Below are positions 17,644-54,204 of a stretch of DNA of 64,000 nt, piece by piece; the first letter of the stretch is position 1; each line of letters begins with the position of its first letter. The stretch is from the NCBI GenBank assembly GCA_009782475.1, contig WRIZ01000007.1:2132-66131 (forward strand). The letters are read 5' to 3'. The notes below the pieces were generated by a model, which saw nothing but the letters and a program-made list of their open reading frames with translations, was not told the DNA's origin and searched no databases. The position numbers were made by a program, and so were the translations under genes. This DNA is from Oscillospiraceae bacterium. Its GTDB lineage: Bacteria; Bacillota; Clostridia; Oscillospirales; UBA929.

Positions 17644-18498
17644 TCAGCCATTTATGATCTGCGTGCCGCAGCCTTCGTCGGTCAGCATTTCCACCAAAAG
17701 CGAATGCGGGGCGCGGCCGTCGAGGATGACGGCACTCTTAACGCCCCTTCGCAAAGCGTCCACACAGCAGTCCACTTTGGGGATCATGCCTTTGCTGACG
17801 GCTCCGCCGCGTTTTAAGGCGGGAATCTCGCTCAGTTTGACTTCGGGGATGAGCGTCGCCGGATCGTCTTTATCGCGCAGCAGCCCCGGTACGTCGGTCA
17901 GCAGGATCAGCTTTTCCGCGCCCAGCGACGCCGAGAGTTCGGCCGCCGCCGTGTCGGCGTTGATGTTGTACGACGTTTCGGCGTCAATGCCGCGTCCAAC
18001 GGTCGAGATGACCGGGATATAGCCTTTTTCCAGCAGCAGTTCCACCAGTTCGGGGTTGGGCTTTTTAATGTCACCCACCAAACCGTAATCGTTCGCACCT
18101 ATCAATCGTTCGGCAGGAAAAAGGTTGCCGTCTATCCCTGACAAGCCGACTGCCTTGCCGCCCCGTCCGGCGATTTGGGAGACAAGGTTTTTGTTCACAA
18201 GGCCGCACAGTGTCATCTGTACGACGTCCATCGTCTCCTCGTCGGTGACCCGCAACCCATCCGCAAACCGGGACTCGATCCCCAAACGGTCAAGCAGGGC
18301 GTTGATCTCCGGGCCGCCGCCGTGAACCAACACAAGGCGGATGCCCACCAGCGAAAGCAAAACAATATCGCCGATGACGGCTTCGCGCAGCTCGGTTTTG
18401 TCCATCGCCGCGCCGCCATACTTCACAACCACCGTCTTGCCGCTATATCGCTGGATATACGGCAGGGCTTCGGTTAGGACTGTTATTTTGCTTGTCAT
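17644..18498 (-). CDS. argB: Acetylglutamate kinase
   Basis: VVKYGGAAM, VHGGGPEI, NINADTAA, GMIPKV. Confidence 0.98.
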   Translation of the reverse strand: MTSKITVLTEALPYIQRYSGKTVVVKYGGAAMDKTELREAVIGDIVLLSLVGIRLVLVHGGGPEINALLDRLGIESRFADGLRVTDEETMDVVQMTLCGLVNKNLVSQIAGRGGKAVGLSGIDGNLFPAERLIGANDYGLVGDIKKPNPELVELLLEKGYIPVISTVGRGIDAETSYNINADTAAAELSASLGAEKLILLTDVPGLLRDKDDPATLIPEVKLSEIPALKRGGAVSKGMIPKVDCCVDALRRGVKSAVILDGRAPHSLLVEMLTDEGCGTQIING

Positions 18499-18507
18499 AT
18501 GTCCTCC

Positions 18508-18587
18508 TGTCGCGCTCCATGCGCGCTTCGCGGGCAGTGCCGGAAGTGAATTCCTTCACTTACGAAGCGATGGAGCAGCTCTTTTCT
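18508..18587 (-). repeat. Structured repeat element, copy A (argJ-argB spacer)
   Basis: Arms match 54032-54149 (31/38 left, 20/27 right); stems GCUCCAU/AUGGAGC and CGCUUCGU/GCGAAGCG; GGAA-capped inner hairpin. Confidence 0.8.
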
Positions 18588-18588
18588 A

Positions 18589-19803
18589 TCATGTCCTGTA
18601 AGCCCCGTTGATTTCCACGTATCGTTCGGTCAGGTCGCAGCCGAACGCTTCGGCTTCAAAGCCTCCGTCGTGCAGGTCGATCAAAATCTGCACCTCGTCG
18701 CGGCTGAGGATGCTCTTGGCCAATTCCTCATTGAACGGCAGCCCCAAGCCGTCTTTGCAGACGTCGATGGTTTCGCCGGAGGAGCGGAAGGATATGTCCA
18801 CATTTTCGGGCTTAAACGGAGCCTTGCTGTACCCCATCGCACAAAGGATACGGCCGAAATTGGCGTCGGCTCCGTACATCGTCGCTTTGACGAGGTTGGA
18901 GGAGATGACGCTCATGGCCAGTTTTTCGGCGCAGGCTTCCGAGCTCGCGCTTTTGACAAGGCAGCTGATCAGCCTGCTCGCGCCTTCGCCGTCCCGGGCG
19001 ATCATCCGCGCCAATTTGCCGTTGACAAAGTTGACAGCCTCTAAAAACGTCCGATATTCGGGGCCTTTCCACTCGATCTGCGGATTGCCCGACAGACCGC
19101 TGGCCAGCACCGCCACCATATCGTTGGTGGATGTATCACCGTCCACACTGATGCGGTTGTAGGTGATGCGATTGCTGTCACTCAGCGCGGCGTGCAGCAT
19201 CTCCGAGGTGATGGCGGCGTCGGTGGTGATGAACGCCAGCATGGTGGCCATATTGGGGTGGATCATGCCGCTCCCTTTGGCGATGCCGCCGACGGTGACG
19301 GTTTTCCCCGCGATTTGGACTTGGACGGCCGCTTGTTTATCGCAGGTATCGGTCGTCATAATGGCCGCCGCCGCGTCGTCCGAACCGTAACGGGACAGCT
19401 CTTTGACCAGCGCGGGGATGGCATTAACGATGGCTTCGGCTTTCAGCGGTACGCCGATGACGCCGGTGGAGTTGACGATGATCTCATCGGGGCGTATGGA
19501 GAGCTCTTTGGCCAACGCTTCGCAGGTCGCCCACGCGTTTGCCTCCCCGTCCGGGGCGCAGGCGTTGGCGTTGCCGCTGTTGGCGATGATGGCGCGCGCC
19601 GTGCCGCGCATGAGATTGCGCTTGGTCACCTGAAGGGGGGCGGCCTGCACTTTGTTGGTGGTGTAGAGGGCGGCGACGGTACAGTCGCAGTCGGCGTAAA
19701 TCAGCGCGAGGTCTTTCTTCGCGGCGTTTTTGCGAATCCCGGCATGGACGCCGGAGGCGGAAAACCCTTTTGCGGCGCAGCAGCCGCCTTGTATTTCATT
19801 CAT
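18589..19803 (-). CDS. argJ: Ornithine acetyltransferase/N-acetylglutamate synthase
   Basis: NSGNANAC, STGVIG, IMTTDT, KGSGMIHPNMATML, VDGDTSTND, DGEGA. Confidence 0.98.
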   Translation of the reverse strand: MNEIQGGCCAAKGFSASGVHAGIRKNAAKKDLALIYADCDCTVAALYTTNKVQAAPLQVTKRNLMRGTARAIIANSGNANACAPDGEANAWATCEALAKELSIRPDEIIVNSTGVIGVPLKAEAIVNAIPALVKELSRYGSDDAAAAIMTTDTCDKQAAVQVQIAGKTVTVGGIAKGSGMIHPNMATMLAFITTDAAITSEMLHAALSDSNRITYNRISVDGDTSTNDMVAVLASGLSGNPQIEWKGPEYRTFLEAVNFVNGKLARMIARDGEGASRLISCLVKSASSEACAEKLAMSVISSNLVKATMYGADANFGRILCAMGYSKAPFKPENVDISFRSSGETIDVCKDGLGLPFNEELAKSILSRDEVQILIDLHDGGFEAEAFGCDLTERYVEINGAYRT

Positions 19804-19816
19804 GATCGACGTCTCC

Positions 19817-20707
19817 TTATAAACCAAACTTCAATTTGAAACATTGAACGGCTCCGCCGGACGCGCCTTTGCCGAGATTATCAAACCTTGCGGCGGCAAC
19901 CGTTTGGAGTTTCTGCCCGAAGACGAAAATCTCTAGGTCGTCCGTCCCGTTACAGGCTTCCATATCCAGCCGCCCGTTTTCCAGAGATTCTTCCCCGCCG
20001 AACGGCATGACCTTGACGTGTTCGGCTCCGTGATACCATTCCTCCAGCGTTGCGTGGACGCCGGGCGCGTACAACGGGAGGGGGATGGAAACCAGCATCC
20101 CCTGTTTCACCGGTGCGAGAACGGGCATAAAGATGGGCGGCGTATCCATTCCCGATACCGCCTGCATCTCCGGCAGGTGTTTATGCTGAAGGCTTAACGC
20201 GTATGGGCGGGCTCCGCGCGGCGGGTTTTCGCCTTCGTACTCGGCGATCATGGCTTTGCCGCCTCCGCTGTAGCCGGTCAGGGAGAAACAGGACAGCACT
20301 TTATAAGGAGCCACCCATTTCTGACGGACAAGGGGATAAATGACGGCGCAAAACCCGGTTGCGTGGCAGCCGGGGACGGCGATGCGGTTGGAGGATTTGA
20401 CCATATCCCGGTGCTCCCTTGACAGTTCGGGGAAGCCGTACGCCCAGCCGGGATGGGTGCGGTGGGCTGTCGAGGCGTCAAAAATGACCGTTTTGGGGTT
20501 GGTGACAAGGGAGACGGCTTCACGGGCAGCTTCATCCGGCAGGCAGAGGAAGGCCGCGTCGGCCGCGTTGAGCCGCTCAGCCCGGGCGGCGGGGTTTTTA
20601 CGCTCCCCTTCCCCGATTTCCAGCAGTTCCACTTCCGATATGGCGCGCAGTTTCTCCTCGATCTGCAATCCTGTTGCCCCTTCACGCCCGTCGATGAATA
20701 CTTTCAC
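19817..20707 (-). CDS. argC: N-acetyl-gamma-glutamyl-phosphate reductase (type 2 form)
   Basis: KVFIDG..G.TGLQI, DASTAHR, YGFPEL, PGCHATG, GYSGGG, DNLGKGASG; GTG overlaps argH stop. Confidence 0.95.
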   Translation of the reverse strand: MKVFIDGREGATGLQIEEKLRAISEVELLEIGEGERKNPAARAERLNAADAAFLCLPDEAAREAVSLVTNPKTVIFDASTAHRTHPGWAYGFPELSREHRDMVKSSNRIAVPGCHATGFCAVIYPLVRQKWVAPYKVLSCFSLTGYSGGGKAMIAEYEGENPPRGARPYALSLQHKHLPEMQAVSGMDTPPIFMPVLAPVKQGMLVSIPLPLYAPGVHATLEEWYHGAEHVKVMPFGGEESLENGRLDMEACNGTDDLEIFVFGQKLQTVAAARFDNLGKGASGGAVQCFKLKFGL

Positions 20708-53266: not shown

Positions 53267-53872
53267 TTAACTCTTTGCCGCCCTTCCGTGGATGAGCCAA
53301 GACAACCTTTTATAGGTCAGGAAGGTGATCAGGCCGATTGACACGCCTTTCAGCAGGTTGAACGGTGTGATGGACAAGAGCACTACCTTCCACAGGCTGT
53401 CAACAGCGGGGATGATGGCGGCGCAAATGCCTATTAAAACTTCCTCGGGAACCATCACCCTTGTGAAAAACGGAACGGTGATATAGTAATTCGCGAATAT
53501 CCCCACAAACGCCATGGTAAACACGCCGATTCCCATCCCCAGCAACGCGCCGCCGCGTGTTTTCCGAAATCGGTAAACCATCCCGGCCGGCAGCACCAAC
53601 GCGGCACCCACGATGAAGTTGGCCAGTTCGCCAACCCCGCCGGTGGTGGTCACCGTAAGATGTATCGCGTTTTTCAGCAGTACGATGGTGACCCCGGCGA
53701 CCGGGCCGAAAGAGAACGCCCCAATCAATGCCGGAAGCTCGGAAAAATCCATTTTCAAGAACTCCGGGAAAATCGGCAGCGGGAATTCCAGTATCATCAG
53801 AACGGAGGCCACCCCGGCCAGCATGGCTGTGACCGTCATCACGCGGAGGCTGCTTTTCATCGTTTTCACCAT
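53267..53872 (-). CDS. ribU: ECF transporter S component, riboflavin
   Basis: PEFLKMDFSELPALIG.F..GP..G, GVGELAN, PFNLLKG; FMN riboswitch upstream. Confidence 0.93.
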   Translation of the reverse strand: MVKTMKSSLRVMTVTAMLAGVASVLMILEFPLPIFPEFLKMDFSELPALIGAFSFGPVAGVTIVLLKNAIHLTVTTTGGVGELANFIVGAALVLPAGMVYRFRKTRGGALLGMGIGVFTMAFVGIFANYYITVPFFTRVMVPEEVLIGICAAIIPAVDSLWKVVLLSITPFNLLKGVSIGLITFLTYKRLSWLIHGRAAKS

Positions 53873-53897
53873 TATCATCTCCTAAATCACAAGATAA

Positions 53898-53926
53898 ACG
53901 CCCTTAAACGGTTCGTTTAAGGGCGT
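53898..53926 (-). terminator. Riboswitch expression-platform hairpin
   Basis: 13-bp stem ACGCCCTTAAACG/CGTTTAAGGGCGT followed on the minus strand by a U-rich tract. Confidence 0.7.
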
Positions 53927-53951
53927 GACAACGCATAAAACTATGCGGCTC

Positions 53952-54186
53952 ACCTTCTTCCATCCAGACTGTAACTGTCGGCACCGGAATCACACCGGTT
54001 CAGCGGAAATATTCCGCTCGCGGGCTTTGAATGTCGCGCTCTGTGCGCGGTTCACGGGCGGTTGCGGAAACCTCTCCGGTTACGTTCGCAGGCTCACTAG
54101 ACCTGCGAGGTGTTCCGCTCCCTGTGACCCGACAGAGCAGCTCTCTTCTTACCGCCGGTGGGGACTTTCACCCCGCCCTGAAGATG
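53952..54186 (-). ncRNA. FMN riboswitch with about 120-nt insertion
   Basis: AUCUUCAGGGCGGGGUGAAAGUCCCCACCGGCGGUA...AGCCCGCGAGC...CCGGUGUGAUUCCGGUGCCGACAGUUACAGUCUGGAUG consensus blocks. Confidence 0.95.
54032..54149 (-). repeat. Structured repeat element, copy B (inside FMN aptamer)
   Basis: Same flanks and stems as 18508-18587 with compensatory substitutions and a longer internal domain. Confidence 0.8.
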
Positions 54187-54204
54187 TATTTACTTTTGGA
54201 CTGC

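Follow-up and report, generated by a model that had tools for sequence, protein, structure and literature searches.

The window analysed here, a stretch of 64,000 nucleotides of contig WRIZ01000007.1, comes from an uncultured Oscillospiraceae bacterium of a termite-gut genus, and two hairpin-forming units on its minus strand, copy A and copy B, are the subject of this report. Copy A occupies the spacer between argJ and argB, and copy B lies inside the aptamer of a flavin mononucleotide (FMN) riboswitch above the gene of an ECF-transporter S component, which is likely to serve riboflavin uptake (Table 1). The source genome (G000; 2.1 Mb assembly, 92% complete) was compared with those of seven congeners (G001–G007). 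All of these genomes are draft metagenome-assembled genomes (MAGs), in which insertion sequences are often unassembled.

Table 1. Position of copies A and B and of the surrounding features in the window.
Feature	Position	Strand	Description and evidence
argB (acetylglutamate kinase)	17644..18498	-	Pfam AA_kinase, 175.5 bits
ATGTCCT heptamer	18499-18505, second 18591-18597		flanks copy A on both sides; real, compatible with chance
copy A	18506..18584	-	79-nt short-form unit with type I arms in the argJ-argB spacer; covariance-model match G000:C7:20637-20715, 76.4 bits
argJ	18589..19827	-	Pfam ArgJ, 472.9 bits; from the open reading frame list
ECF-transporter S component	53267..53878	-	Pfam ECF_trnsprt, 106.2 bits; gene under the riboswitch
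terminator-like hairpin, T-rich tail	53898..53926	-	consensus scan; probable expression platform
FMN aptamer	53948..54189	-	RF00050, 103.2 bits (gathering cut-off 66.2), model positions 1-138
copy B	54030..54146	-	117-nt long-form unit with type I arms and a large apical domain; match G000:C7:56161-56277, 67.4 bits

Copies A and B in their genetic context

The two units had been noticed in a sequence-only reading of the window, which described them as a two-copy structured element with similar arms. The likeness of the arms was reproduced, with 31 of 38 letters identical between 18508-18545 and 54032-54069 and 20 of 27 between 18561-18587 and 54123-54149, whereas the next-best ungapped matches in the window, on either strand, reach only 22/38 and 17/27. 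The layout that had been drawn on the minus strand, consisting of stem 1, stem 2, a variable apex, a CGC bulge and a GACA tail, with compensatory changes in the stems, was found in both copies as well.

At the argJ/argB junction, the TGA stop codon of argJ (18589-18591) stands 4 nt ahead of the model start of copy A, and the GACA tail of the unit (18508-18511) is followed directly by the Shine-Dalgarno (SD) sequence of argB, GGAGG (18503-18507), with the ATG at 18496-18498. Copy A thus abuts the argB SD as had been stated, and the argB leader of G000 reads GGAGG-ACAT-ATG. The RNA fold of copy A has an energy of -33.1 kcal/mol. It had also been expected that removal of copy A would restore an ATGA overlap, and this agrees with the congeners: in four of the seven (G005, G006, G001 and G004) the stop codon of argJ and the start codon of argB overlap in this way, reading ..ACATGA.., so that empty sites do exist in relatives. 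Besides G000, the covariance model described below matches the junctions of G007 (25.9 bits, E 5.8e-4) and G002 (19 bits, an apex-less derivative). The spacer of the remaining congener, G003, measures 17 nt and includes a GGGGAGGGG of its own; set against the four ATGA overlaps, it shows that the junction varies even where the repeat is absent.

A maximum-likelihood tree from 3.9 kb of the ribosomal operon, rooted only at the midpoint, groups G000, G005, G003 and G002 apart from G007, G006 and G001. The argJ/argB junction is occupied in both of these clades and empty in both, so that either insertion must have struck this one junction more than once or units must have been lost without a scar. 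At this place the unit would have ended the translational coupling of an ATGA junction and given the downstream gene an independent SD. A coupled gene pair split by a hairpin and an SD, together with the empty, ancestral-type state in relatives, makes the cost or benefit of uncoupling testable.

The assignment of copy B to an FMN aptamer was likewise upheld. In the Rfam alignment, copy B appears as a 120-nt insert in the variable loop of P3, where the RF00050 consensus has 10 nt, and the aptamer is otherwise intact, with all conserved model positions kept despite the insert. A full-length match above the cut-off, a terminator-like hairpin and an ECF S-component gene are all present, as is expected of an FMN riboswitch. 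The aptamer is 242 nt long in G000 and 132-138 nt in G001, G002, G003, G004 and G006, where P3 ends in a short hairpin. By eye, the 45 nt inserted at this position of P3 in G007 look like truncated arms; the insert gives no model match at E≤1 and is a possible remnant only. In the riboswitch a self-contained hairpin would merely lengthen P3. The case offers a natural riboswitch aptamer with a foreign hairpin of about 110 nt at the tip of P3, of which the congeners provide the uninterrupted form.

The FMN aptamer of G005 (L037, G005:C29:59171-59335; 165 nt) has almost no P3 tip, and the loop of its last helix, at model positions ~110-122, is enlarged by an unrelated hairpin of about 32 nt. This means that a second, different insertion has been tolerated in the FMN riboswitch within the genus.

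A covarying hairpin with a modular apex

The description as a two-copy element is true of the window only. When G000 was first searched with two arm motifs, 17 pairs of arms came up, of which about 14 are true units; an nhmmer profile of the same genome gave more. A covariance model, R1, was built from 21 aligned units (MAFFT alignment, with no structure used in the fitting). With R1 there are 45 matches in G000 at E≤1, of which 43 reach E≤1.2e-4; only two of the 45 lie within the window. Scanning the genome and its relatives with a covariance model, which had been proposed, therefore returned many further copies.

The units are 73-136 nt long and share one order of parts: from a 5′ tail rich in purines (..AGAG or ..GAAGAG) they run through stem 1 and stem 2 to an internal loop and an apex, with a single-stranded GACA tail at the 3′ end. 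A 3-nt bulge separates the two basal stems on the 3′ side, and the asymmetric internal loop is nearly invariant, with CAGGRAG facing GACCGNCCG. The apex varies in blocks; the commonest form is a stem of 5-7 bp with a UUCAY loop, giving about 79 nt in total, and larger apical domains bring the length to about 93, 117 or 135 nt. There are two types of arms, ..GAGCUGCUCCAU.. and ..GAAGAGCCGARC.., which are combined with different apices. The ends of the unit (AGAG.. and ..GACA) do not form an inverted repeat with one another, and internal deletion reduces units to stubs that keep stem 1 only. The GGAA tetraloop that had been proposed for copy A was not borne out: covariation places the conserved UUCAY in the loop on top of a variable stem of 5-7 bp, and the minimum-energy fold of copy A agrees. 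A K-turn was considered for the 3-nt bulge and for the type II internal loop and was dropped by eye, the non-bulged strand having no GA beside the C-stem.

On the 21-sequence alignment, 92.5% of 439 cells hold standard pairs, compared with 75.5% after shuffling, a level reached by none of 500 shuffles. Changes on both sides are seen in 18 of the 21 pairs, and when the partners are slid by 1-3 columns, only 36-48% remain paired. The covariation seen between the two window copies thus holds strongly in the larger alignment. The sense strand folds better than the antisense strand, by a mean of 2.4 kcal/mol (28 copies versus 15; Wilcoxon p = 0.002), whereas counting G-U pairs as a test of the strand reveals no difference (78 sense, 79 antisense). 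Covariation by itself does not separate RNA from single-stranded DNA.

Type II units (e.g. G000:C14:1970-2047 and C5:3451-3530) end in TTGACA, the -35 consensus of sigma-70, and many go on with ATG (..GACATG..). An outward promoter role is unlikely for most copies, because in most cases only 5-27 nt separate the unit from the next start codon. One unit, G000:C9:227-306, lies directly behind a promoter-like TTGACA-17-TATAAT site and would form the 5′ end of the leader.

With Rfam 15, only the FMN family reaches its gathering score in the window. Nothing recurrent was found at E≤10 around copy A, at E≤1 around copy B or at E≤5 over 20 loci (22 units), and the 20 loci gave only isolated hairpin-like miRNA matches well below the cut-offs. 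The units stand outside the families of Rfam, as had been supposed. Among the literature matches listed, neither a description of this repeat family nor a report of a repeat within a riboswitch aptamer was found, which is no proof of absence in print.

Distribution, site occupancy and placement

At E≤0.001, where G000 has 43 matches, R1 finds 32 in G005 and 23 in G002, followed by 11, 8, 2, 0 and 0 in the other congeners; G004 has no unit at all. In other genera of the family, 3 of 17 genomes contain matches (1, 3 and 3), all of them long forms, and there are none in 16 genomes taken one each from 16 further families of the order. When the exact pattern of the 3′ arm was searched in one genome each for about 185,000 species, six loci were obtained, five of which fall in three Oscillospiraceae MAGs; the sixth, in a Solibacteraceae genome, was set aside as a chance match in a coding sequence. 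Viral contigs gave 0 matches for two arm patterns. For annotation this means that about 45 spacers per genome in a termite-gut Oscillospiraceae genus are explained by one family outside Rfam, for which a model now exists.

Occupancy differs among species at nine compared sites. Between the genes of L6 and L18, only G000 has a unit, and in 6 of 6 relatives the TAG stop runs straight into the SD. Between those of S17 and L14, G000 again has a unit; the aligned junctions of G003 and G002 hold unrelated spacers of 33 and 45 nt, and those of G001, G006, G007 and G005 appear empty, as judged from coordinate gaps only. G005 in turn appears to have units in three other spacers of the same ribosomal operon (model matches and coordinate gaps). 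At infA-rpmJ, a unit is present in G000 (81 nt), in G007 (117 nt) and, as a direct tandem of 136 and 117 nt, in G006; by eye, a solo arm or stem-1 stub is left in G001, G003 and G005, and only G004 has neither. At four more sites, too, some genomes are empty, some are occupied and some are left with a stub. A search for sequencing runs listed four of termite-gut metagenome DNA and none of RNA. Some metagenome contigs of at least 85% likeness carry 7-26 other letters in place of each of three units of the ribosomal operon. Since these contigs are perhaps from other species, they add little and do not show polymorphism within a species.

The tandem at infA-rpmJ of G006 (L055, G006:C122; 136+117 nt) is one of several in direct orientation. 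In G002 (L070, G002:C63), a 135-nt unit and a 47-nt apex-less unit stand between a DnaJ-domain gene and yicC, and adjacent pairs of ~116-nt units occur in G007 and in G023.

The genes around the units were called with our own codon-statistics caller, which finds 2,036 genes in G000 (90.6% coding). In this genome, 27 of the 45 units lie between two genes of the unit's own strand, and the next protein gene is on that strand in 34 of 44 cases. The placement is strict: 17 of 45 units begin -6 to +11 nt from a stop codon on the same strand, and 25 of 45 end -1 to 27 nt before the downstream start codon, or 26 when infA-rpmJ is included, which the automatic count missed because rpmJ is too short for the gene caller. 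Of the 28 units of G005 whose downstream gene was called, 25 are sense; in this genome the stop codon and the opening letters of a unit often coincide in part. Nine of the 45 units of G000 stand antisense between two genes. In the tRNA-Val/Asp/Phe/Gly cluster (G000:C2:136566-137196), three units exactly fill the spacers, the first in sense and the other two in antisense orientation; a solo 5′ arm, inverted, adjoins the third of them.

The tail that follows the hairpin differs greatly between the two orientations. Read in antisense it has 4.6 T per 10 nt, and read in sense 1.24; tails with at least 5 T are found in 22 of 45 units in antisense and in 0 of 45 in sense. Comparing the units with the leading strand was abandoned, as the GC skew is too weak in the contigs (29 of 45 units are on the G-rich strand); several units take the direction of their gene in opposition to the local skew, an observation on which no weight is placed. 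The flanking genes include those of S17-L14, L6-L18, IF1-L36/S13, flgK-flgL, mreC, ctsR, a c-di-AMP receptor, parts of ABC transporters and YicC. They are functionally unrelated, which argues against a regulon.

Nature of the family

Copies A and B probably belong to a family of small interspersed repeats that form hairpins, are non-autonomous, are restricted to one lineage and resemble REP/BIME, ERIC and Correia elements. The family is new, though of a kind already known. It has spread through one Oscillospiraceae genus, sits in different spacers in different species, and leaves no detectable target-site duplication. Its units are found only where a self-contained hairpin does no damage. What is unusual about it is the modular apex, the strict placement between stop codon and SD, and the occurrence of units within the helix of a riboswitch and at a junction that was once an ATGA overlap. 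The suggestion of a small mobile structured unit therefore stands in its REP-like part, given the copies, the covariation and the empty sites; a ribozyme, which had been offered as one option, finds no sign in the form of an Rfam ribozyme match.

The heptamer repeated on both sides of copy A had been noted as a duplicated AGGACAT. The repeat itself is real, but as a target-site duplication it was not upheld: in the 45 copies of G000, the longest direct repeat from flank to flank averages 4.29 nt, compared with 4.29 nt for mismatched flanks. The 7-mer of copy A is the longest of the 45, and repeats of at least 7 nt occur in about 3% of control pairs, so that about one is expected by chance.

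Among known families, the ERIC/IRU elements of Enterobacteria and the Correia elements of Neisseria (CREE/NEMIS) are imperfect palindromes of ~100-150 nt that lie in transcribed spacers, vary in size through indels, affect mRNA according to orientation and have no transposase of their own. The present family may share the effects on mRNA and shares the other traits, a likeness of character and not of compared sequences. In Correia elements the termini are inverted repeats and a TA is duplicated, whereas here no duplication is detected and the ends are not inverted copies of one another. Rickettsia palindromic elements (RPE) and cyanobacterial MITEs are repeats found inside functional genes or RNAs, and in this respect copy B is like them, being tolerated in helix P3 of an aptamer that still scores 103 bits. 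REPs are about 20-40 nt long, carry a GTAG-type head, commonly form inverted doublets and are mobilised by RAYT transposases of the Y1 HUH type, whose genes usually lie amid the repeats. Compared with these, the units described here are longer (73-136 nt), form direct tandems on the same strand instead of short palindromes or inverted doublets, lack a GTAG-type head, possess a modular apex, come without a Y1/RAYT gene in the three richest genomes, and reside in Clostridia, whereas the hosts of REPs are Enterobacteria and Pseudomonas. Common to both are imperfect palindromes in tens of dispersed extragenic copies, transcribed spacers often close behind a stop codon, the absence of a target-site duplication, variable occupancy among relatives and clusters at one site. 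Effects of REP/BIME (REPIN) elements at the RNA level, on upstream translation and mRNA stability, are described in an excerpt of PMC12306157. The fixed-length duplication of a MITE derived from a DDE transposon is lacking. Such a MITE would also share its terminal inverted repeats with an autonomous element of the genome. The family appears to fit neither REP/RAYT elements nor DDE-type MITEs while sharing their lifestyle.

As to mechanism, the unit may move or recombine as DNA, perhaps as a folded single strand, through an enzyme encoded outside the present assemblies, and insertions would survive only in harmless spots, namely the few bases that part a stop codon from the SD, the spacers between tRNAs, 5′ leaders and P3 at its variable tip. 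An antisense unit within an operon would resemble an intrinsic terminator, be polar and be selected against; the sense bias could thus result from the T-rich tract that follows the hairpin in the antisense reading. The hairpin that the unit would form in mRNA would be stable, at about -30 to -60 kcal/mol, with the stop codon immediately upstream of it and the SD immediately downstream. By analogy with REPs, which in an excerpt of PMC12306157 (citing its ref. 17) lower translation when their distance to the stop codon is below 16 nt, it may stall terminating ribosomes, lower the output of the upstream gene, or shield the flanking cistrons from RNases. It may also buffer mRNA decay, by analogy with the operon stem-loops of Clostridium; excerpts of two papers have intergenic stem-loops setting operon stoichiometry in cellulolytic Clostridia (PMC4423207, PMC10311766).

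Several observations weigh against an interspersed repeat spread as DNA. First, no mobilising enzyme was found by a search for three transposase families (Y1, IS110 and TnpB) in the draft genomes. Y1_Tnp (PF01797) has 0 matches in G000, G005 and G002, the genomes richest in units, although in drafts this does not prove absence, and the only weak matches are in G004 (0 copies), G006 and G007; IS110 gave sub-threshold matches only, and TnpB occurs only in G004, a genome without copies. A linked HUH/RAYT transposase, for which a search had been suggested, is therefore not supported. Nor was a longer element with the same ends, or a pair of arms around a transposase-bearing segment, found in G000. 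A REP-like family without a RAYT gene would point to another mobilising activity or to spread by recombination. Second, no sign of current mobility was seen, as the empty sites all come from other species or from the metagenome contigs mentioned above. Third, the slight advantage of the sense fold, taken together with the equal G-U counts, does not single out an active strand or an active molecule. Finally, the conserved unpaired bases, the sense bias and the repeated occupancy of sites in both clades, at argJ/argB and, by eye, at P3 of the FMN aptamer, fit selection for a host RNA equally well.

Such a host-selected module acting in cis at the RNA level, with its spread as DNA being secondary, is the most serious competitor, although we hold it to be possible rather than probable. 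It could be an intercistronic processing or stabilising signal, or a decoupler of translation, that sets operon stoichiometry as in selective RNA processing and stabilisation, a role close to that of the stem-loops in the same excerpts on cellulolytic Clostridia. The sense bias (34/44 in G000, 25/28 in G005), the tight fit between stop codon and SD, the conserved single-stranded motifs and UUCAY loop, the stabler sense fold in 28 copies against 15, and the compensatory retention of structure at a site common to distant congeners (argJ/argB in G000 and G007) are all in line with it. A host function is harder to reconcile with two congeners that have no model match and one that has only two, with the decay to stubs in relatives, and with nine antisense copies between genes and two more in the tRNA operon. 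The flanking genes form no regulon, and one unit is lodged in a helix of the riboswitch, in which a processing site would do harm.

It is unlikely that the family is a targeted modular cassette which homes to stop/SD junctions, hairpin tips and tRNA spacers by a mechanism that makes no duplication, the repeated occupancy then reflecting site-specific homing and not shared descent. Such a cassette may bring its own SD, and three species have ..CAGGAG.. before argB. If it did home in this manner, operons would be rewired from coupled to uncoupled translation, and the exchangeable apices would be recognition modules for a protein or a guide.

Even less credit is given to a recombination site like the attC of integrons, that is, a folded hairpin of single-stranded DNA recognised by a recombinase whose gene lies elsewhere, possibly on a mobile element outside the assemblies. 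Like attC sites, the units are hairpins defined by structure above sequence, with variable terminal structures whose lengths are mixed with different arm types, and they lie between genes of the same strand; the strand-specific use of attC, the direct orientation of tandem units and the absence of a target-site duplication would also suit this idea. They are located, however, in core operons (ribosomal, arg and tRNA) and not in cassette arrays or any integron context, and no attC-type core sites are seen at their ends.

A catalytic or RNA-mobile element, either a new self-cleaving ribozyme or a unit spreading through an RNA copy, is hardly credible. Small ribozymes are often associated with repeats, and conserved unpaired nucleotides do stand beside covarying helices here, with every occupied place being transcribed. 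Yet no Rfam ribozyme was matched at the thresholds given above for copy A, copy B and the 20 loci, the fold is a single rod in which no junction or pseudoknot was detected, self-cleavage within P3 would destroy the riboswitch, and antisense copies exist. That the likeness of the two window copies is due to chance or GC-rich palindromy, an idea to which one might turn given that copy A alone folds no better than its shuffles (z = -1.57), is refuted by the arm matches above background, the 45 copies in the genome and a covariation above all controls.

Some single copies of the repeat family touch their neighbours in particular ways. The open reading frame upstream of the unit at G000:C12:23740-23820 ends in ..CPCGSGKKYKKCCGF, which resembles a zinc tail of the SecA type, and its TGA stop codon is formed partly by the first letters of the unit; in the G005 counterpart (L118, G005:C51), the frame seems to continue into the unit, so that the protein would be extended at its C-terminus. 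In the flagellar operon of G000 (fliW-csrA, flgK-flgL), a solo 3′ arm in antisense orientation (G000:C44:391-412) lies just downstream of csrA, and a full unit stands between flgK and flgL.

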